64,000 nt of DNA from a virus (IMGVR_UViG_3300026549_000895:64001-128000); one strand, 5' to 3'. Positions 1-63,654 are shown, counted from the first letter of the stretch. Program-made: numbers and translations. Notes: generated by a model not told the origin, from the letters alone.

Positions 1-1
1 T

Positions 2-1237
2 GCTAAGGCTAAACTCACTGGCGAGAAGTATGAACCATCTGATCCTAAGGTTAAACGTGAATACGAGGAACTCTGTAATTCAGGAATGGATGAAGAATCC
101 GCAATGTCTACGGCATGTGATAAATGTGCAATATCCAATGACAAGTATTATACAAATGATTCTATCAATGACATCATCGATGACATTGACGATTTCACAG
201 AATCATTTGTTGAATCAGTTGCCAATAACCTCACTCTTGCATCATTGAATGATACTCAGGAAGTATATATGGAATACGCTGATATGTTCTATATGGAAGG
301 TATACAGAATGCGACTGATGAGTCTGTCAAGAATAGCAACAAAGTTCATCCTATCAGATTCATCATTAAGACATTTACGGGTATAATCAAATTCATTCGT
401 AAGATAGTTACTCGTATTAGAGAATTCCTCAGAAAAGTTCATATTAAAGATATGAACAAAATAAACTGGATAAAGAAGCATGGTATAAAGGATCTATTCA
501 AAGAAGGTATCTGGTTATATACATGGAGTGATAAAGGTGATCATGGTGAAAACGTAAGAGCTTTGTATCAGTATCTTGATTTGTTTGACAGAGTAATGGC
601 TACTATTCAGAATTCTATGCATGACAAGAAAGAAGCACTTCCTGTTACACAAACAAGAGTCAATGCAAAGGTTCCTAATCCAATAAAATTCAAGAACATT
701 GAACATGGTGTCAGAATACTAAGAAATGTTATTTTCTCAAAAGAGAAGGTGCTAATCACTGAGAATAATGAACAGGATCTCGAGAAAATATTCTTTGGTA
801 TAACCGATAATGGAACATCTGGTCCTTCATGGAATATTTACAATTTCCTTGATATACTTTCAAATGGTTTTGAAAGTCTGAGTAAAGATTGTGAACAGTT
901 GCTTCAGGATCTCCAGGATCTCGAAGGAAACTATGACAGCGTATACTCAAAGAACCCGAAGCTGTATAATCTGTTGATATCTTCAACAAAGGGATTATCA
1001 AAAGAATTTGGTAAGTTCTCCAAAATCATTACTCATGATACAACAACTATCATGCAGCTCAACTCCGGTTTGTATGAGCTCATGAAAGAATATGATGAAT
1101 CCAAGAAATACAACAAAGGAGAATCCGAAGAAGCTCAGGAAGATATTGCAAATAACAAGTTCCAGAAAAAGAAAACTTCCGAAGATCTCAAGAGATATTA
1201 TCCTGGGATTGATGAAAATCGTGAACCTGGTGAATGA
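2..1237 (+). CDS. hypothetical protein, possibly virion-associated; 5'-truncated by the window
   Basis: Frame 2 is open from the window start through the listed 86..1237 ORF; acidic and helical; followed by a terminator. Confidence 0.6.
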   Translation, partial: AKAKLTGEKYEPSDPKVKREYEELCNSGMDEESAMSTACDKCAISNDKYYTNDSINDIIDDIDDFTESFVESVANNLTLASLNDTQEVYMEYADMFYMEGIQNATDESVKNSNKVHPIRFIIKTFTGIIKFIRKIVTRIREFLRKVHIKDMNKINWIKKHGIKDLFKEGIWLYTWSDKGDHGENVRALYQYLDLFDRVMATIQNSMHDKKEALPVTQTRVNAKVPNPIKFKNIEHGVRILRNVIFSKEKVLITENNEQDLEKIFFGITDNGTSGPSWNIYNFLDILSNGFESLSKDCEQLLQDLQDLEGNYDSVYSKNPKLYNLLISSTKGLSKEFGKFSKIITHDTTTIMQLNSGLYELMKEYDESKKYNKGESEEAQEDIANNKFQKKKTSEDLKRYYPGIDENREPGE

Positions 1238-1242
1238 TATAA

Positions 1243-1274
1243 ATCCCCCGGGAAACCGGGGGAATATCTTTTTT
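1243..1274 (+). terminator. intrinsic terminator
   Basis: TCCCCCGG-GAAA-CCGGGGGA stem followed by a T-tract. Confidence 0.8.
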
Positions 1275-1279
1275 GTATT

Positions 1280-1294
1280 TATATACTTATTATG
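1280..1294 (+). promoter_or_regulatory. putative early phage promoter (TATATACTTATTATG)
   Basis: One of seven copies of the intergenic motif TATATnTTTAnTATG found upstream of operons. Confidence 0.55.
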
Positions 1295-1336
1295 AGAAAC
1301 GAGAATATCATATCTCGTAATATATTAAAAGGATAG

Positions 1337-1570
1337 GTGATCTTAATGAAAATGTATATTGATAATGGTGCTAATGCACTGACCCAAGGAAGACATGCTT
1401 TGACTCCTGCTGATACTCATGGAGCATTGTCATTCACTACGATAATGAATGAAATTGTGAGTGGTGAATTCCAGTGTGGTTCTAAACAACCATTCCCAAT
1501 AGTTTTCGAAAATGATAAACTTCCATGGGGTGAAAAGACTGAATCCCCGTGGGATAAGATTGAATATTAA
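1337..1570 (+). CDS. hypothetical protein
   Basis: 77-aa ORF with AAGGATAGG upstream. Confidence 0.6.
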   Translation: MILMKMYIDNGANALTQGRHALTPADTHGALSFTTIMNEIVSGEFQCGSKQPFPIVFENDKLPWGEKTESPWDKIEY

Positions 1571-1595
1571 TGATTAATATGAAAGGAGAATCAAA

Positions 1596-4500
1596 ATGTC
1601 TGTAACAAAAGAACAACTTGATGAATATCTAAAAGCTTACCAAGCAGGTAAACCTCTTATAGATGACGAAGAAGTTTGGTGTACAATACATTATCGAGAT
1701 ATACACAATGATATGTATGAAGTATCCAATTATGGCAGAATTCGTAGAAAAGATACTTTAAAACTAATGTGTCCGAATGTCCGAGGAAATGGATATGTAT
1801 ATGTTAGATTAAGTCTAAATGAATGTGGTAAAAGTAGAATATTCACAATACATAGATTAGTAGCATTTCATTTCTGTGAAGGATATTGTGAAAAAACAAC
1901 AAATATTGTTAATCACAAAGATGGAAATAAATTGAATAATTTTTATGTAAATTTGGAATGGTGTACGCAAAAGCACAATAGTCAACATGCTGTTGATACA
2001 GGACTTCGTGAAATACGATATGGTGATGATAGCAATAGGCATTTTGTTTCATCTGTGTTGGTAGAACGAATATGTCAGATGTTGATTGAATATGATGGCT
2101 CTATAAAACCGATATTAACCATACTAAAAACCGAAGGAATTTATTGTACTTTTGGCATCATTGAAAGCATCAAGCAAAAAGAAACATGGATTCATATTTC
2201 TGATAAATATTTTAATAAAGGATATTTCGATGAGTTGAAAAACAATGATATTAGAACAATATGCGAAAATATTAAAAAATATAATGGCAATAGAAAAAAT
2301 ATCATGGAACATACAAAGCTCAAATCGGTTAAATTAAATAAAAAGATGCTGGATAATATTATTGAGAAACGGCTTTACAAGAAGATTTCTGACGAATATT
2401 TCGACAAAGATGCATATCTTACAAAGAAATTCTTTTCGGAAAATGATGTTAGGCGTATATGTGAATTATTAGTAAAATACAAAGGAGATGTAAAAATGGT
2501 TTTTAATAACTTAAAAGATTCGATTCCGAATGCAACAATAGACCGAATATCCGATATTAAGCATAAGGGATCATACGAAAGCATTTCTAATGAATATTTT
2601 GAACGAGGAGAGTTCAACCAAATATGTACTGAAGATCTCGATTTTATTAGAGAACTTTTAATGACAAAAACAATCTCTTATTCGCCGTTAAAATTATATG
2701 AAATATTGAATCATGAAAAATATCCAAGATTAACAATCAGCGTCATCGGAATGATTAGCAGATGTTCCCATGATGTGTATAATCAGTCAAACAAGATGCA
2801 AATCGAAAAATTCATTAAAAATAAAGAAAATGGAGTAACCGTTCCTATATCAAAAGAAACGTTATCTAAATTAATAGCTTCATATTCATCGGGTTTTAGT
2901 GATATAACCGATACGGGATATGACGCACTTCTTGAAGAATATCTGAAAAAACATGGAGAATCTCTCAGGCCGTTCTTGAGACAATCTCAGACTGAATCCA
3001 TTGCAGATATTGTCTCAACGCTCCCAAAAGTATATGGTATTAGCGTTCCTATGAGGCAAGGTCAAGCAACATATGAGGAATGGCGACACAAACATGAATT
3101 CAAATCAGCCATAAAAGTTATACAACCAAAATTTGATGGTTGTTCTGTTGCATATGATTTGAAAGCAAAGAGATTCTTTACAAGAGGAGATACTGATAAT
3201 GGAGAATCCGTTGATGTTACTGATTTATTTTCTAAACATGATTTGAATGAAAAGAATCTGAATGAATTTGATGCCATAAAGTTTGAAGCTATTCTTTCAA
3301 GGCAAGTTTATAATGAAGCATTTTCAGATTTATATAAACGACCAAGAGATGTAGTAGCGGCTGTTATTCATTCCAGAGATAAAGAGTTGGCTAAATATAT
3401 CACTTTGATTCCATTAAGAAAGATAAAAGATAAGAAATTATACTTATCCGATACTTTACAAGAGTTATCTCTGACTTTCCAAACTCTTAATCAGATAGAA
3501 GAATTTGATACTATTCAAAATTTCATTGATGAAATATTATCAGCTAATGCAACTCGTTGTTTTCAATATCAAACATTTGAATGCGATGGAGTTGTACTAT
3601 CCAATGTTAATAGTTCCAATGAAGTATTGATAGAAGAGATAGCTATAAAGATTCTGAATTTACAGAAGAAAACCAAATTGAAGAAAGTTATTTTCTCAAT
3701 GGGAAAATCTGGAAGGGTAACTCCTGTTGCTGAAGTTGAACCTGTTAAATTCGATGCAGTCACAGTTTCAAATATCTCATTGGAGAATCTGAATAGAATG
3801 ACTGAACTTAGACTAAGAGACGGAGACACTGTGAATATTATGTATAACATCAGACCTTATCTTTTATCATCTGACCATGATGGTGGCCATGAAATTCCGA
3901 TACCTGACAGATGTCCGATATGTGGTTATAAATTAACACGACTTGGACCAGAGCTCGTAGGATGTGAGAATCCGAATTGTAGAGGAAATGAAATAGGTTC
4001 AATAGTCAGATATTGTCAGAACATGAAAATGTATGGAATATCTACATCGACGGTTGAAACTCTATATGACGCTGGACTTATCAAATCAATATCTGATTTA
4101 TATCATCTGAAAGCAGAAGACATATCCAAACTCGATAGATTCGGTAATATCTCTGCTGCAAATATTGTCAGGTCAATAAGAAAAGCATCTACTAATGTGA
4201 ATCCGTTAAGATGGTTATCATCATTACCCTGTAGAAACATTGGTTTGAAAACATGGATGCTAATTCAGAAAGGTGCTTTCGAAGATGATAATCTGAGACT
4301 TGGTAATATTCTGAAAGACGTGTGTAAACAAGAAACTCCTGATATGTTCATAGAAGAACTTTGTAAGCCAGTATTTGGTGTTGATGATTTAACACTCAAT
4401 GCAATCAGAGTTGGAGTTACGTATGCTTGGAAAGATATTCGAGAGATGATTCAATACATTACATTCACAGCATTGACTCCAATGAAGCATTCAAAGGGAA

Positions 4501-4700
4501 CTGTTGTATTATCAGGAACTCGTGACAGACTACTGATAGAGTATCTTGAATCCGCTGGATATGAAGTATCAGATTCATTTAAATCCGATGCTAAATATGT
4601 TATCGTTCCAAACTTAAATTTCTCATCTTCAAAAACTAAGAAAGCACGTGAGAAAGGTATACCGGTTATAAATGCTGAATCAGCTCTTAAACTTTCTTAA
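1596..4700 (+). CDS. ligA: NAD-dependent DNA ligase with an in-frame NUMOD4-HNH insertion
   Basis: KFDG adenylation motif, TRGD, DGVV, GKSGRVTPVAEVEPV OB fold, CPIC..C..PNC zinc finger, HhH repeats, C-terminal BRCT; residues 27-441 are an endonuclease insert. Confidence 0.92.
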   Translation: MSVTKEQLDEYLKAYQAGKPLIDDEEVWCTIHYRDIHNDMYEVSNYGRIRRKDTLKLMCPNVRGNGYVYVRLSLNECGKSRIFTIHRLVAFHFCEGYCEKTTNIVNHKDGNKLNNFYVNLEWCTQKHNSQHAVDTGLREIRYGDDSNRHFVSSVLVERICQMLIEYDGSIKPILTILKTEGIYCTFGIIESIKQKETWIHISDKYFNKGYFDELKNNDIRTICENIKKYNGNRKNIMEHTKLKSVKLNKKMLDNIIEKRLYKKISDEYFDKDAYLTKKFFSENDVRRICELLVKYKGDVKMVFNNLKDSIPNATIDRISDIKHKGSYESISNEYFERGEFNQICTEDLDFIRELLMTKTISYSPLKLYEILNHEKYPRLTISVIGMISRCSHDVYNQSNKMQIEKFIKNKENGVTVPISKETLSKLIASYSSGFSDITDTGYDALLEEYLKKHGESLRPFLRQSQTESIADIVSTLPKVYGISVPMRQGQATYEEWRHKHEFKSAIKVIQPKFDGCSVAYDLKAKRFFTRGDTDNGESVDVTDLFSKHDLNEKNLNEFDAIKFEAILSRQVYNEAFSDLYKRPRDVVAAVIHSRDKELAKYITLIPLRKIKDKKLYLSDTLQELSLTFQTLNQIEEFDTIQNFIDEILSANATRCFQYQTFECDGVVLSNVNSSNEVLIEEIAIKILNLQKKTKLKKVIFSMGKSGRVTPVAEVEPVKFDAVTVSNISLENLNRMTELRLRDGDTVNIMYNIRPYLLSSDHDGGHEIPIPDRCPICGYKLTRLGPELVGCENPNCRGNEIGSIVRYCQNMKMYGISTSTVETLYDAGLIKSISDLYHLKAEDISKLDRFGNISAANIVRSIRKASTNVNPLRWLSSLPCRNIGLKTWMLIQKGAFEDDNLRLGNILKDVCKQETPDMFIEELCKPVFGVDDLTLNAIRVGVTYAWKDIREMIQYITFTALTPMKHSKGTVVLSGTRDRLLIEYLESAGYEVSDSFKSDAKYVIVPNLNFSSSKTKKAREKGIPVINAESALKLS
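1674..2918 (+). mobile_element. in-frame NUMOD4-HNH homing endonuclease insert
   Basis: YEVSNYGRIR (NUMOD4), IHRLVAFHF..VNHKDGNKLNN..NLEWCTQKHN (HNH); splits the ligase domain Ia motif DDEE/YDALL. Confidence 0.85.
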
Positions 4701-4713
4701 AGTTATTTTACGA

Positions 4714-4737
4714 TGTACCCGGAAACCTCCGGGTACA
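4714..4737 (+). terminator. hairpin, putative terminator
   Basis: TGTACCCGG-N6-CCGGGTACA. Confidence 0.6.
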
Positions 4738-4764
4738 CGTTTATTTCATGAAAGGAGAAAATTC

Positions 4765-5253
4765 ATGATTGTAATGTCAGGTAATGTTTTGGAGACTCCG
4801 ATTGAAATTATAGCTCATCAGGTTAATTGCCAAGGAGTCATGGGAGCGGGTCTTGCAAAACAAATAAAAGATAAATATCCGAAGGTATATACATGGTATC
4901 GAACCAAATGTCATAAACACTTGTTCGGACACAAAACTCTTGGAACTGGTCAAATAGTACCAACTGATGATGGGCATACTTTTTTCAATATATTCGCCCA
5001 AGATGGATATGGAACAACCATAAGACAAACTGATTACAACGCTTTCAAATCGGCATTCAAAGATGCAATTGATACATACAGATTCTTCGCAAATGATGCT
5101 TTATCAAATTTGGAAATTGCAATTCCATATAAAATTGGATGTGGATTAGCCGGAGGAGATTGGAAAGTCATACGTGCAATTTTAGGACAAATTGAAAAGG
5201 AATGTAATGTAACATTTTATATTTATAAATTAAGGAGTGATAAATATGAATAA
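4765..5253 (+). CDS. macrodomain protein (Poa1p/TARG1/DarG-like)
   Basis: IAHQVNCQGVMGAGLAKQIK and IPYKIGCGLAGGDW motifs; AAGGAG before the ATG at 4765. Confidence 0.9.
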   Translation: MIVMSGNVLETPIEIIAHQVNCQGVMGAGLAKQIKDKYPKVYTWYRTKCHKHLFGHKTLGTGQIVPTDDGHTFFNIFAQDGYGTTIRQTDYNAFKSAFKDAIDTYRFFANDALSNLEIAIPYKIGCGLAGGDWKVIRAILGQIEKECNVTFYIYKLRSDKYE

Positions 5254-5959
5254 AATCCCAGAAGGTAAACAAGGAAAGCTTTGTCATGATGCAGTATCCG
5301 AACAGAAAACTGTAATCTCTACAATGCTGAATAATTGTGAGAAAGCAAATCATAACATTTATGTTGTAACTGATTTACATTTATTCAAACGACTCGAAAA
5401 AGGTAAGTCAGTGTGTAAAAGAAGATATAATTTCTCCGAAGTCTTAAAGAATTACAAAAACACTGTAAAAGATGACGATGTTGTTATCTTTCTTGGAGAC
5501 TTGTGTGATGGAGAGTTGTATAGTCCAAATGAACTATCCGAAATAATATTATCATTACCCGGAAAGAAAATCCTTGTTCTTGGTAATAACGATTTGTTCG
5601 GATTCGATAAATATCGTGATATGGGATTTAAAATAGTTACATATTCTTTCATATGGAGGAATATAGTATTCTCTCACTATCCTCTTGTAAATACTCAATC
5701 AGTTAATGTACATGGTCATCTTCACAATTGTAAGCAGTATTGGATACCTTATCAGAATCAGATAGATGCTGCTTATTGTGATGCTCGTGTTAAGCCGGTT
5801 CTTCTGAAAACTGTCATAGCAGCACAACCAGAATACTCCAAACATATAACAGTCAAGGAAGAAAACTTCTTCAAAGAACAAGCTGGAAATCTTGATATTG
5901 ATGGAATGGCTGAATACTATGATTACAATGTTTTGTTCAGAGATCCAGTAGATGACTAA
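5246..5959 (+). CDS. calcineurin-like metallophosphoesterase
   Basis: DLH, LGD, GNND, SHYP and HGHLH motifs. Confidence 0.85.
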   Translation: MNKIPEGKQGKLCHDAVSEQKTVISTMLNNCEKANHNIYVVTDLHLFKRLEKGKSVCKRRYNFSEVLKNYKNTVKDDDVVIFLGDLCDGELYSPNELSEIILSLPGKKILVLGNNDLFGFDKYRDMGFKIVTYSFIWRNIVFSHYPLVNTQSVNVHGHLHNCKQYWIPYQNQIDAAYCDARVKPVLLKTVIAAQPEYSKHITVKEENFFKEQAGNLDIDGMAEYYDYNVLFRDPVDD

Positions 5960-5976
5960 GGAAGGAAACCTGATAA

Positions 5977-7041
5977 ATGTATGCATTCATAGCGGACGTA
6001 CATCTTGGAGTGAATCTAAAGAATGAAGACTTTATGAAGTCACTCGATATGCTACTCGATATAATACGTAAACACAAAGAACCTTGTCATTGCATCTTTG
6101 TGTGCGGAGACTTATTCGATCATCGTCTTAATATAGACGAATATAAGTTTGCCACGAAGTTTCTTTTGAAATTGGTGTGCAATAACTTATCCAGAGATAT
6201 AGACAAATCTCATATACCCGTTCATTTTATAAAGGGAACTGATTCTCATGATTGTGGTCAATATGATATATTCATACCCATGTTATATAAATTGAATGGT
6301 AATGTATATTATGCGAAAGAGAACAATGAATACGTTAATGAAGTCGGTCATCGTATTCTATATCTTCCACAATTATATCACAACGTGAATTATGATGAGA
6401 TATTCTCACAATCATATGATATCATTGTTGGACATGGACCGATGTCATCTGCAACAATGTCTCCATGTAAATGCGCTAACTATGAGATTCTTCAATCAGC
6501 AGATAAGTTGGGCTCTATTTCAAAAATATGTGTCTTTGGACATTACCATGGATTTACTGATTTTGGAAATAATGTATTTTATACTGGGCCATTACTCAGA
6601 TGGCAATTTGGTCAACCTGAGAAACGAGTATTCACATTGTGTGATGATAATTTCAATATGGAAACTTATGACAATCCATATGCAATTGAATATAAGAAAC
6701 AAAATATATCTGATGTGGAGAGTTTGAGAAATCAAATCTCACAGGGTATAACAACCCCTGTCAGATTCATTATTGATGTAAATCAAGATACAAATATGGA
6801 AGAATATTATGCAATAATGAATCTGACAAAGAACAATAAGAACATTTCATATCAGATAAAGACTTCTGTTATTGAAGAATCTGATAATGAGAATGAACCA
6901 GTCGTAGAACATGAGACCACAATTGTTTCCTCCGATATTGTTGATCGTGTAGAATCATTGATTCAATATGTTTCTGAAAAATATAAAACCGATACAGCTA
7001 AAGAAATCAGAGAATATGAATCCAAAATAAAACAGGAGTGA
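5977..7041 (+). CDS. SbcD/Mre11-like nuclease subunit
   Basis: ADVHLG, GDLFD, GTDSHD and GHYH motifs; adjacent to the recombinase. Confidence 0.8.
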   Translation: MYAFIADVHLGVNLKNEDFMKSLDMLLDIIRKHKEPCHCIFVCGDLFDHRLNIDEYKFATKFLLKLVCNNLSRDIDKSHIPVHFIKGTDSHDCGQYDIFIPMLYKLNGNVYYAKENNEYVNEVGHRILYLPQLYHNVNYDEIFSQSYDIIVGHGPMSSATMSPCKCANYEILQSADKLGSISKICVFGHYHGFTDFGNNVFYTGPLLRWQFGQPEKRVFTLCDDNFNMETYDNPYAIEYKKQNISDVESLRNQISQGITTPVRFIIDVNQDTNMEEYYAIMNLTKNNKNISYQIKTSVIEESDNENEPVVEHETTIVSSDIVDRVESLIQYVSEKYKTDTAKEIREYESKIKQE

Positions 7042-7092
7042 TTTTTGGACAATATCTTACTATTGTATTTTATGGAAGGAATGATTTAATAA

Positions 7093-8454
7093 ATGGCTAA
7101 AAAGAAAATCGAAGTTGTCACCCGAGAACTTGAAGGTGCCGACTTAATGACCATACTCGCAGATGGTTGTTCATCTGACCTATTCGACAAGAACAAACTT
7201 GTCGACTTCTCATATTCAACAGGTATCCCGGTTATAGATTATCTGTTGGGATACGAGACACTTGTAAAGGATCCTGAGACAAAAGAAATTATCAAGAAAA
7301 GACAAGTCCTTGGTTTACAAGCTGGATCTTTCAATATCTTAACTGGTAAATCACAATCTTTCAAAACAACAATTGGTATGAACATAGTCTCAAACATTGC
7401 GGTTGATCCTGATGTAAACGGAAACGTTGTTCATTATGATGCCGAGGGTAGACTTGTTCTTCAGCGTGTAAAGACCATTACTCAATTACCTGATGAATGG
7501 TTCAATGCTGAACATCCTCGTTATGCATTGAAGTCAGGAACAATTGGTTTTGATAGACTGAAGAAAGATATCGCTGAGATATATGAGTCTAAGATGAAGC
7601 ACAAAGATTTGTTGTTAAGAGATACTGGTGAAGTTGATGATAAGAACAGACCTATTATATTGATGCCTCCGACACTTGTACTCATAGATTCTCTTCAGCA
7701 TATTGTTATCAGTGAAGATGCTTATGATGTAAATGATAAGCAGTTCCAGGGCTCTAAGGAATTGCGTAACAACATGGTTGGCGCAATTACTGCAAAGACT
7801 ATAAGAGGATTTATATCTGATATTATTCCTATGCAAAAAGAAGCAAATATCATTGTTCTGTGTGTTGCTCATAAGACAGGTAATGTTTCTACAAATGCTT
7901 TCTTAGCACCTTCAAAACAGTTCCAGTATGGATCTGTTTCAGAGAGAATCTCTGGTGGTTCTGCTGTTGAGTATGATCCTTCAGCACTGATGTCATTCAC
8001 AGGTTATTCATCAAATGATTCTCGTTTCACTAAAGAACAGGATGGTTTTGACGGAAACCTTGTATTGTTTGAACCTATTAAGTGCTCGACAAATCAGTCT
8101 GGTAATGCCAAGACGGGTATAAGTGTTGATATCGTAATTGACAAAGGTCGTGATGGCGTTGATAACTACAGAACTCTTTCCCTCTTCCTTAAGTCAAAGG
8201 GTAGATTGAAAGGTAATAATGCAGGTTGGAAAGTTATCAAAGCCGATGGTACTGAAACAGAAACTCGTTATAGATGGAAACACATCTATGATGATATGGA
8301 AAAGGATCCTAAGTTGTTTACAGAATTCATGCAGGCATCTATTGAAGAGCTTGAGAAACTCTTGTCACCTGCTGTAAATAACACAGGTAAGAAGCCAATG
8401 AAAATCAATAACATTCTGAAGGAACTGAAAGCTTCGTCGGAAGTAAATGAATAA
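7093..8454 (+). CDS. uvsX: UvsX/RecA-like recombinase
   Basis: STGIPVIDYLLG, Walker A GKSQSFKT, YDAEG, LIDSL, SGGSAVEY. Confidence 0.85.
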   Translation: MAKKKIEVVTRELEGADLMTILADGCSSDLFDKNKLVDFSYSTGIPVIDYLLGYETLVKDPETKEIIKKRQVLGLQAGSFNILTGKSQSFKTTIGMNIVSNIAVDPDVNGNVVHYDAEGRLVLQRVKTITQLPDEWFNAEHPRYALKSGTIGFDRLKKDIAEIYESKMKHKDLLLRDTGEVDDKNRPIILMPPTLVLIDSLQHIVISEDAYDVNDKQFQGSKELRNNMVGAITAKTIRGFISDIIPMQKEANIIVLCVAHKTGNVSTNAFLAPSKQFQYGSVSERISGGSAVEYDPSALMSFTGYSSNDSRFTKEQDGFDGNLVLFEPIKCSTNQSGNAKTGISVDIVIDKGRDGVDNYRTLSLFLKSKGRLKGNNAGWKVIKADGTETETRYRWKHIYDDMEKDPKLFTEFMQASIEELEKLLSPAVNNTGKKPMKINNILKELKASSEVNE

Positions 8455-61389: not shown

Positions 61390-61440
61390 ATATGATAATG
61401 ATTCATATTATAATTCAATAAAACGGAGGTCGATTTAAAA

Positions 61441-63654
61441 ATGAATAAAAATGAAGAATGGAAATTTGTGGATTGGATACCAGGTTTTCCAAAAGACATA
61501 TTAAAAATATCTTCAACTGGACGAGTTTTGAAGAAAACAAACGACACGCTTGTGGAAGTAATAGGTGACAGATTTAAGGTAAACGTAGATAAACAAAAAT
61601 ACTATTTTAGCGCATCAAAGCTTATGTTTTGGGCTTTTCGTTCAAATGAATTAAATGTTTCTTTTGAAGAATTCAGTGCTTCAACAATCATGATAGTAAA
61701 ACCGAAAGACTACTTTAAGCCATTGGATGTATTTACTAATGCAATCATTCGTAACCCAAAATCATTGGATTATATTAAAAAATATAAACCAATAGAAGAC
61801 AAATTTAAAGAATTCCCTCTAAATTATACGAAATATCATTATGATATAATTCATTTATCATCGGAGGAGGTCAATAGTATTGTTACAAACTATTGTCATG
61901 AAATTGGCCTTCCGGAAAGCAAAGAATTGTTAGATTTGTTCAAACTTGCATTTTGCGATCAAGCAGACAGTAAATCAAAAGTAAGCAAATCAAAGTTACC
62001 TCGCGGTAAGTATTCCCAATATGTTTCGTTATTGAAGACAATACCTAATATTTTGGAACTCCCTGAAGGATTTAAATATGTAAAAATTGACGGAATTCCC
62101 AAGAACAAATACATCATTTCAAAGGATGGTAGATTGTTCAATCGATGGGAAAATGACAAGCCTGTCATAATAAATGATAGATTAAACGATGTAACACTAA
62201 CCGCGTCACCATTAAACCAATATAGGGTATGTATATTCATGGCCCGTTTAATGGCGTTTTGTTTCCATGATGACTTCAATCCTGAATCAGATGTTGTAGA
62301 AATAATAGACACCAATCGAAAAGATTTGTTTGCGCTGGATAATATTGCGTATAGTACACGCACTGGGATATACATGAGAAAAAAATACAAAGGTGACTTT
62401 CAAACAATTTTATTTAATAATTTATCAATAGAAGATAAAAATGTTCCGTTTGACATCATAGAAAAGTTCAGCAAAATAATAGTTGGAGAAAAACAATATG
62501 ACTTCATCAAAAAATATTTGTCTTCAGATCTACAGCGAAGTGACTATGATAACTTTCTAAAAGAATACGGATACAAAACTGACAAAACTTTGACAACTAA
62601 AGCAAAACTCACGCTGAATAAAATATCAAGAGATATTAATACATTTATTGATGGATGGAAAAATGGTGAAATATGGAAAAAGTGTGATTTCATGGGAGAT
62701 GACACAATTCCGGGATATTGGATATCTTCACATGGCAGATTTATTAACGAAAATCATGTAATGCAAAATGAGAAAAGAAATGGACCGGATGTATTATTCG
62801 TTAATGCAATTTTGTCATCTGGTAAATCAAAACAATATCCATTGATTAAATTGATGGCATATAATTTTATACCAAATCCAAAAGGATATTCGCATGTCTC
62901 ATACAAAAATGGATACGATCTTTCTATTGATAATATCGAATGGTGCGAAGAAGGATCTAATAAATCAGATGTTAAAATATCTTTTCATGATTGGGTAGAA
63001 TCCGATAACGACGATATGTGGGTTCCATTAATACAACCCGGTATTGATGAGAATAGGTATGAAATAACCCGTTCTGGTAAAATCAGAGATCTTGTAGAAC
63101 ATAGAATCGTACCCATAACCGGAAGCCGTCGATTAAAATTTACCAATATCAATGAATTTATAAAAATATCTCTTATTGACGAATTCGACAAGATAAGAAT
63201 TTACAATATACACAGACTAATAGCACAATCATTTCTAATTAATGATTATAACGATAAATATGTCATCTTTCTCGATAACAATCATAGGAATATTAATTTG
63301 GATAATTTGTGTTATTCTAAATCACCAATGTTTGAAAAATGGGAAACTTTCAAAAGACATTTCAGATATCAGATTGATGGTCATGATATGATTGAAGATG
63401 TTCACACTACAAGCACAAATATCGAATGTTCCCGTTTCTGTGAACAATCTGATTGCCATATTATATGTAAGGAATTTGTCGAAAATGATTTCAACAAAGC
63501 ACTGACACGACGGAAACTTTATAAGTCTGGAATAAAGGTGAGTAGAGAAACGTTAAACGAGATATTTACTGGAAATTATTATAGAAATATTTCTCGTAAA
63601 TATTTTACGTATGATCCTTCCAAAAAAGGCAAAGCTCGTTGGGTAGCGGTATAA
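61441..63654 (+). CDS. multi-NUMOD4/HNH-derived protein
   Basis: Four NUMOD4-like units (ISSTGRV, ISKDGRL, ISSHGRF, ITRSGKI), each followed by a degenerate HNH-like segment. Confidence 0.7.
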   Translation: MNKNEEWKFVDWIPGFPKDILKISSTGRVLKKTNDTLVEVIGDRFKVNVDKQKYYFSASKLMFWAFRSNELNVSFEEFSASTIMIVKPKDYFKPLDVFTNAIIRNPKSLDYIKKYKPIEDKFKEFPLNYTKYHYDIIHLSSEEVNSIVTNYCHEIGLPESKELLDLFKLAFCDQADSKSKVSKSKLPRGKYSQYVSLLKTIPNILELPEGFKYVKIDGIPKNKYIISKDGRLFNRWENDKPVIINDRLNDVTLTASPLNQYRVCIFMARLMAFCFHDDFNPESDVVEIIDTNRKDLFALDNIAYSTRTGIYMRKKYKGDFQTILFNNLSIEDKNVPFDIIEKFSKIIVGEKQYDFIKKYLSSDLQRSDYDNFLKEYGYKTDKTLTTKAKLTLNKISRDINTFIDGWKNGEIWKKCDFMGDDTIPGYWISSHGRFINENHVMQNEKRNGPDVLFVNAILSSGKSKQYPLIKLMAYNFIPNPKGYSHVSYKNGYDLSIDNIEWCEEGSNKSDVKISFHDWVESDNDDMWVPLIQPGIDENRYEITRSGKIRDLVEHRIVPITGSRRLKFTNINEFIKISLIDEFDKIRIYNIHRLIAQSFLINDYNDKYVIFLDNNHRNINLDNLCYSKSPMFEKWETFKRHFRYQIDGHDMIEDVHTTSTNIECSRFCEQSDCHIICKEFVENDFNKALTRRKLYKSGIKVSRETLNEIFTGNYYRNISRKYFTYDPSKKGKARWVAV

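Follow-up and report, generated by a model that had tools for sequence, protein, structure and literature searches.

The gene for the NAD+-dependent DNA ligase of a rumen jumbo phage carries a mobile cassette (1668-2918), in which an I-HmuI-like homing endonuclease gene (HEG) is followed by a 24-codon surrogate of the ligase N-terminus and which is probably read together with the ligase as one nuclease-ligase protein. The gene lies in a stretch of 64,000 nucleotides (nt), hereafter the window, which covers bases 64001-128000 of the 239,830-bp IMG/VR virus record IMGVR_UViG_3300026549_000895; this record is ~89% complete. The prevailing view is that homing endonucleases gain access to essential coding sequences only under cover of an intron or an intein, and are otherwise confined to the space between genes. 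The ligase locus and the related loci suggest that phages have a third route, by which a carried spare would replace the start of the gene and the element would be translated within the host protein. The close relatives compared below were all drawn from ENA and Logan assemblies (loci designated L001 etc., proteins P0002 etc.).

The fused reading frame and its two ligase N-termini

The fusion occupies a single reading frame on the plus strand (1596-4700) that is open over all of its 1034 codons, as had been noted in a first-pass annotation of the sequence. Its start is that of the native ligase. An AAAGGAG ribosome-binding site (RBS) is located seven bases 5' of the ATG (together 1582-1598, plus strand), and the same RBS and start are present in the insert-free locus L001; this is the sole start now serving the whole fusion. 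The first 24 codons (1596-1667, plus strand) are a native ligase stub, which holds the initial part of the domain Ia motif, its first half, severed from its YD partner, and forms a low-confidence helix (residues 5-16) in an AlphaFold2 model. The stub is followed by an I-HmuI-like HNH homing endonuclease (1668-2846, plus strand), identified by matches to Pfam, PHROGs and PDB entry 1U3E. PHROGs classifies residues 1-440 as an HNH endonuclease (PHROG 59, E 1.5e-37). Pfam reports a NUMOD4 domain (1713-1814, residues 40-73; 27.4 bits, cut-off 23.4) and an HNH_3 domain (1851-1982, residues 86-129; 27.8 bits, cut-off 24.8), both on the plus strand. Residues 38-139 align to I-HmuI (PDB 1U3E) over ~100 residues with an E-value of 3e-18, and the catalytic DHKDGN...NL.W..QK.N pattern is intact in this alignment. 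Internal repeat comparison revealed four tandem helical repeats of ~65 amino acids (aa) each (~2043-2846, plus strand, residues 150-417), the first of which resembles the third (E 7e-13) and the second (E 8e-8).

The ligase resumes with the surrogate N-terminus (2847-2918, plus strand, residues 418-441) and continues with the rest of the gene up to and including the stop codon (2919-4700, plus strand; PHROG 3869, E 1.5e-81). Residues 418-1034 are assigned to NAD-dependent ligase by PHROGs and comprise, in this order, an adenylation domain, an oligonucleotide-binding (OB) fold, a four-cysteine zinc finger, a helix-hairpin-helix (HhH) and a BRCT domain. The lysine of the KxDG motif, K512, is encoded at 3129-3131. 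Together with D514, G515 and the zinc-finger cysteines C773, C776, C790 and C795, it is invariant in 76 aligned ligases. The LigA OB fold (residues 692-748) scored 53 bits against a Pfam cut-off of 32.9; the scores for HhH (19 bits) and BRCT (15.5 bits) were both under the Pfam cut-offs. The AlphaFold2 model (mean predicted local distance difference test score, pLDDT, 79) consists of separate modules joined by low-confidence linkers, and Foldseek matched its ligase part to the LigA structures 2OWO, 4GLX and 1DGS, with ~600-700 columns aligned to full-length LigA. The ratio of non-synonymous to synonymous substitution rates (dN/dS) was 0.06-0.28 throughout (nuclease, 0.06-0.28; ligase remainder, 0.10-0.24). 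Because of this purifying selection and because all invariant residues are kept, the ligase part is, judged from its sequence, not a pseudogene.

The position of the insert was established by alignment with insert-free ligases, a check that had been suggested in the first-pass annotation together with two statements: an insert of 415 codons (1674-2918), and a native start that would otherwise join the YD motif. Both held. Insert-free relatives of ~617 aa read from the N-terminus directly into YD..LLEEY, and in the window 1245 nt stand between these two parts. The forms of 617-618 aa that show the join are 73-84% identical to the ligase of the window (P0003, 618 aa, 84%; P0004, 79%; P0008, 77%; P0010, 73%). 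Fused forms of ~1033 aa were found at 87% (P0002), 80% (P0005) and 76% identity (P0009), and more of them at ~45% (P0033, P0043, P0068, P0080). The insertion point lies inside the conserved motif of domain Ia, between ISDEE and YD..LLEEY, and the junction is ambiguous by two codons (24-26 native codons). A further claim, that two glutamates of the ligase double as the start of the NUMOD4 sequence EEVW, stood only in part: the glutamates as a start of the cassette were supported, but their origin from the ligase was not. The closest empty alleles read S-T at this point, and a cassette at another site also starts with E-E...W. The two E codons at 1668-1673 thus probably belong to the cassette and not to the ligase.

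The surrogate had been described as a diverged second copy of the ligase N-terminus (24 aa, 2847-2918). The translation agrees with this description: seven of the 24 residues are shared (K, E, L, Y, G, I, D), and 34 of the 72 bases (47%) are the same as in native codons 3-26. Seven identities alone are weak evidence, and we therefore used a dedicated profile, which was restricted to the 24 residues before YD and derived from 66 distinct insert-free ligases. This N-terminus profile matches the window protein twice, at residues 3-26 (46.5 bits), the native stub, and at residues 418-439 (independent E-value 3e-5). The surrogate alone scored 19.2 bits, compared to a maximum of 8.0 bits in 2000 shuffles and of 3.9 bits for the other 24-residue windows of the nuclease part. 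The insert-free N-termini also align to the surrogate in the 76-sequence alignment, where Y430, G433, I437, D439, Y442 and D443 fall on columns that are invariant or >90% conserved. Because profile and alignment place the surrogate on conserved columns, the NMN-binding motif of domain Ia, Y..G...I.D..YD, is, by these comparisons, rebuilt 3' of the nuclease from the surrogate and the downstream YD, the partner that the native copy at residues 1-24 has lost. Studies on E. coli LigA have established that this motif is needed for the reaction with NAD+. Between L002 and L007, the surrogate has acquired no non-synonymous but seven synonymous changes (dN 0, dS 0.64). In the AlphaFold2 model, the surrogate region forms helices 420-431 and 439-453 (pLDDT 81-88), leading into the LigA-like body. 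A PDB sequence search with residues 400-760 placed the surrogate region on residues 31-43 of Thermus filiformis LigA; this match was below significance and was not used.

All fused alleles contain the same surrogate, which is nearly constant in its bases across cassette types. The stub, by comparison, is host-specific: the two members of each of the pairs P0009/P0010 and P0005/P0008 have nearly the same ligase body, and the stub is kept in the host-specific spelling. Because the stub is host-specific and the surrogate common to the fused alleles, the latter is, as judged from these alleles, a part of the cassette, and the native stub belongs to the host lineage. As a side observation, a single one of 104 free ligases, the insert-free P0094 (646 aa), has a natural N-terminus (..AYSSGSSEISDEAYD..) like the surrogate (..SYSSGFSDISDEAYD..). 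With its YSSG..ISDEAYD-like N-terminus, this protein may mark the lineage that gave the cassette its spare N-terminus. A region-restricted search for insert-free ligases combining a surrogate-type N-terminus with a nuclease tail returned only the known fused and remnant clusters.

Mobility, insertion sites and decay of the cassette

From the comparison of alleles, the element is mobile. The loci L005 (with HEG) and L006 (without HEG) form a near-isogenic pair: 700 nt on the upstream side and 2 kb on the downstream side are 98-100% identical, save near the junction. There the two loci differ by the 1245-nt cassette and by short tracts of mismatches (upstream, 29 within 56 nt; downstream, 25 within 122 nt, becoming sparse by ~+350), a pattern that identifies these as co-conversion tracts. 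When L005 was compared with L002, the first 330 nt downstream were 92% alike and the sequence further on 84%. L007/L008 is a second pair with and without the HEG. On the upstream side, the left homology arm is a conserved gene of 77 aa (1337-1570, plus strand), which is common to alleles with and without the HEG; homologous open reading frames (ORFs) of 71-80 aa are found directly 5' of the ligase in L001-L012.

Divergence indicates that the cassette is younger than its surroundings. Among the window, L002, L005 and L007, cassette identity is 85-97% at flank identities of 51-78%; the upstream flanks are 51-68% and the 3' parts of the ligase 73-83% identical. The value of dS is ~0.3 for the cassette and 1.0-1.8 for the ligase. 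The DNA run X4 carries the same cassette (12 differences in 1286 nt, 99%) behind a different native stub, with flanks that are 94-97% alike. A candidate joint in X4, from 1636 to 3332, was discarded as unreliable (24 letters on the shorter side, 90% likeness). In a tree of 120 ligase cores, from which the first 60 residues after the junction were left out, the 16 rows bearing a HEG or a remnant need 11 gains or losses, at least nine of which are forced by well-supported branches, and alleles with and without the HEG are interleaved. An ancestral and fixed fusion, which the first-pass annotation had named among the findings that would speak against its proposal, is not what we see: because of the near-isogenic pair, the divergence between cassette and flanks, and the tree, the fusion is neither ancestral nor fixed. 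Apart from this, we noticed a patch of ~700 nt of ligase body in the window (2919 to ~3650) that is only 45-85% identical to L001 and L002, against 93-100% for the flank on the upstream side and for the remainder of the gene. This looks like recombination, over a length much greater than the L005/L006 co-conversion tract.

Cassettes occupy three insertion sites in the ligase gene, namely after native codons 24-26, ~43 and 62. In L010 (P0012), a related nuclease follows native codon ~43, and the surrogate comprises ~40 codons. In L009 (P0006), a second nuclease subtype follows native codon 62 and the surrogate reaches past this codon. The stub of L009 is a dead-end ORF of 71 aa (L009:2799-3014), which contains the 62 native codons and runs into the RBS and start of the nuclease; the latter has an AAGGAGG and ATG of its own. 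At each site, the surrogate reaches up to that site and is longer where the site is further in, and its central 30-odd bases are nearly identical across all types. The nuclease reads in frame into the ligase in every variant, the decayed remnants included.

These remnants, L012 (P0007), L011 (P0011), P0036 and P0087, are in-frame decay products that have lost the catalytic part and kept the last helical repeat and the surrogate. P0011 (L011:3001-5118) and P0036 are both 705 aa long and derive from in-frame deletions in different lineages, by which the first 6-11 native residues were joined to the start of the last repeat, apparently via a recurring motif (..EY/..QY plus F/I-E). Their origins are independent, since each resembles the full-length nuclease found in the lineage to which it belongs. 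A mosaic structure is also evident within the endonuclease, because the nuclease module of L005 (residues 27-140 of P0005; L005:3079-3420) is strongly diverged from that of the window, L002 and L007 (dS 1.6-2.0) and the repeats of L005 are close to theirs (dS 0.3), which suggests that endonuclease variants have exchanged modules. The L005 module was also seen to resemble that of the distant P0033/P0068 group.

Proposed life cycle and alternative readings

One family holds empty sites, three insertion sites, near-isogenic pairs, co-conversion, mosaic modules and in-frame decay. Because this material is unusually complete, the life cycle of the element can be reconstructed and tested. Translation would begin from the RBS and ATG of the native ligase and yield one protein of 1034 aa, consisting of stub, nuclease, surrogate and ligase. 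The surrogate would contribute the Y..G...I.D half of the NAD+-binding motif, so that the ligase would work without splicing of RNA or protein. In a mixed infection, the nuclease would nick or cut empty ligase alleles near the insertion point, and repair from the occupied allele would copy the cassette together with flanking sequence, in an amount between some tens and a few hundred bases. The occupied allele would be protected, with its site split and the left half replaced by the diverged copy. In this allele, the native left half joins the nuclease, and a left half that is 47% identical joins the native right half. Because the native halves are split, a junction-spanning site would be destroyed in both places. 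We infer a cut site near the insertion point and immunity of the occupied allele.

The ancestor may have been an endonuclease translationally fused directly 5' of a ligase; in L012, a nuclease remnant precedes the ligase without a stub. Other ligases would have been entered with the right end by homology and the left end by joining at the break, leaving the 5' stub of the recipient behind. Because the two ends would have been formed in this way, the surrogate of each site would reach exactly to that site.

Obligatory translational fusion is the simplest reading of the locus and the probable one; the protein would be translated as a whole and would have both enzyme activities. The nuclease-ligase fusion proposed in the first-pass annotation gains from the family comparison, since in-frame read-through from nuclease to ligase is universal among the variants and none of eight fused loci has an in-frame ATG, GTG or TTG with a Shine-Dalgarno sequence before the surrogate; one candidate internal ATG is ATA in L005. 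The use of the RBS and start of the host, which the first-pass annotation had proposed for this splicing-free invasion, applies to the window but is not universal, as the variant at codon 62 has its own RBS and ATG.

Several points weigh against this picture. The 39 nt around the surrogate/ligase junction are still fairly similar to empty sites, with only ~10 differences, so that the resistance to cleavage proposed in the first-pass annotation is putative. I-HmuI itself nicks both intron-containing and intron-less DNA. The origin by illegitimate joining of the left end is a reconstruction. Domain Ia has to swing over the adenylation domain, and 417 additional residues at its N-terminus might hinder the ligase. 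Both junctions are spanned, with 100% identity and without any joint, by contigs of two RNA libraries that come from one sample (1584-1853, 1592-1748 and 2551-3204), but DNA carry-over is possible and rare forms may be hidden, so these contigs are weak evidence, neither proving transcription nor excluding a minor spliced form. Their depth was not used for expression.

It is possible, though unlikely, that the cassette is mobile but that the functional ligase is produced as a polypeptide of its own, either through non-canonical initiation inside the frame, close to the surrogate, or through proteolytic release. An extension of this size on domain Ia is unusual, the low-confidence linkers of the AlphaFold2 model would suit such a release, and a GGAG is located 11 nt before an ATA codon at 2847 in the window and three relatives. 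But this GGAG is lost in L011 and absent from L009, L010 and L012, and different residues (I, S, P) occupy the equivalent position, which leaves no conserved start. The lack of a start codon with a Shine-Dalgarno sequence in the eight loci also argues against a separate ligase, and a frame kept open from nuclease to ligase in all variants would be needless if the ligase had its own start.

We consider it very unlikely that the nuclease has ceased to be selfish, either as a domain that has been domesticated and fixed at the N-terminus of the ligase or because the interrupted ligase is a dead gene. Fusions are indeed found in ligase lineages that share only 45% identity, and remnants always keep the last helical repeat before the surrogate. 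These observations are outweighed by the patchy presence of the cassette with near-identical empty alleles, its much younger age compared to its hosts, the intact HNH catalytic pattern, and the purifying selection and retained invariant residues of the ligase.

That splicing removes the insert, as an unrecognised self-splicing intron with an ORF open into both exons or as an atypical intein, is barely credible: an endonuclease inserted in frame at a conserved motif of an essential phage gene usually belongs to an intein or is an intron ORF, and I-HmuI itself is intron-encoded, but no Rfam intron family was found at E<=1 on either strand of 1200-5000, Pfam detected no Hint/intein domain in the fusion protein, the junction residues (E/V-W at the start, T-G at the end, followed by Y) lack the Cys/Ser/Thr and His-Asn of inteins, a surrogate that keeps the ligase invariants at dN 0 versus dS 0.64 would be pointless if spliced out, and the RNA-library contigs, for what they are worth, cross both junctions unspliced. 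The first-pass annotation, which had reported no intein or group I boundary signatures, was right in this respect.

Relation to known systems and distribution

Our literature search found no report of an HNH-LigA fusion. In Aeromonas phage Aeh1, mobE reportedly splits nrdA, an example of a free-standing endonuclease of the HNH family that is tolerated in an essential gene without splicing. There, two separately translated pieces are said to reassemble, with neither duplication nor fusion, unlike the ligase cassette. The nuclease itself shares with I-HmuI of Bacillus phage SPO1 (PDB 1U3E) the N-terminal DNA-binding sheet and the HNH core with its catalytic residues, as well as a target in a conserved motif of a phage DNA-metabolism gene. 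But I-HmuI is a nicking enzyme whose gene lies within a group I intron and whose C-terminal tail is short, with helices and a helix-turn-helix, whereas the ligase-borne nuclease has four tandem helical repeats of ~65 aa, no intron, and is fused to the host protein.

The closest precedent are the fungal mitochondrial mORF gene hybrids, described for atp6 of Allomyces macrogynus and for atp6, atp9, cox2 and nad3 of Glomus (PMC3630166, the source on which our comparison with the mORF literature rests, and the work on Allomyces from 1994 to which it refers). As in the mORFs, a free-standing HEG lies inside a coding gene without intron or intein, and a diverged, foreign, in-phase copy replaces the displaced gene end, while the native end is left nearby as a remnant; the native end matches close relatives and the inserted end is divergent. 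All of the defining features of mORFs (an endonuclease ORF in the gene, an in-phase diverged copy of the gene end, and a native remnant) are found in the phage gene, at its 5' and not its 3' end. In mORFs, the 3' (C-terminal) end is replaced and the endonuclease is of the LAGLIDADG or GIY-YIG type, whereas the phage element affects the 5' end and is of the HNH type. In a mORF, the host protein usually terminates ahead of the endonuclease or of the native end. The phage ligase, in contrast, can be translated only through the endonuclease: because of the 5' placement it must be read through, resulting in an obligatory fusion. By analogy, the phage cassette can be regarded as the 5' mirror image of a mitochondrial mORF gene hybrid.

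A second comparison is offered by the ShiLan insertion in DNA methylase genes of actinobacteriophages (PMC11855218), where an actively homing HNH element also resides in a phage gene. There too the host frame runs on without a stop, and neither an intron nor an intein can be detected. The ShiLan HNH is encoded in another frame, and translation of the host frame is proposed to loop out, whereas the HNH of the ligase cassette is in the host frame. Moreover, no part of the host gene is duplicated in ShiLan, in contrast to the surrogate gene end by which the ligase cassette restores the host protein.

Annotation pipelines will label such genes as oversized ligases or "HNH-ligase" proteins, and phylogenies of these rumen jumbo phages that are based on the ligase have a mosaic signal near the insertion site. 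The enzyme would be a naturally fused nickase and ligase whose DNA-binding array is modular, which may make it of interest for genome engineering. There is a small but appreciable chance that the fusion is more than a parasite that is tolerated, namely a working bifunctional enzyme that selection on the phage maintains, the last helical repeat having been co-opted as an accessory domain of the ligase. If so, the tethered nickase might damage the ligase genes of competitors during co-infection while the phage seals or protects its own DNA, or the DNA-binding array of the nuclease might recruit the ligase to specific sites.

DNA of the phage was found in bovine gut (rumen) metagenomes of several studies. 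Among cultured phages, megablast with window positions 1-8000 gave no match, tblastn with the ligase gave matches of <30% identity only (Staphylococcus and Bacillus jumbo phages), and tblastn with the nuclease gave <=33% identity only; by these searches, the phage has no cultured relative. Neither a ligase-based locus search nor the exact pattern of the conserved bases of the surrogate retrieved anything from IMG/VR and the JGI metagenomes. The nuclease part belongs to a huge family, with 74,422 matches among 1.84 billion representatives. Those long top matches that were checked by Pfam are multi-module endonucleases, with no fusions to other enzymes among them.

Two further endonuclease-like frames were noticed in the same genome. 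At ~61,400-63,654 (plus strand; L017:1-1947), a frame of 746 aa contains three tandem degenerate NUMOD4/HNH-like modules with a single, weak HNH_3 match (16 bits, 63208-63318), and may encode a multi-module or a decayed endonuclease. Outside the window (G000:C1:41186-41662, minus strand; L014/L015), a frame of 240 aa encodes a free-standing HNH endonuclease (HNH_3, 34.5 bits) that is 33% identical to the ligase-borne nuclease.

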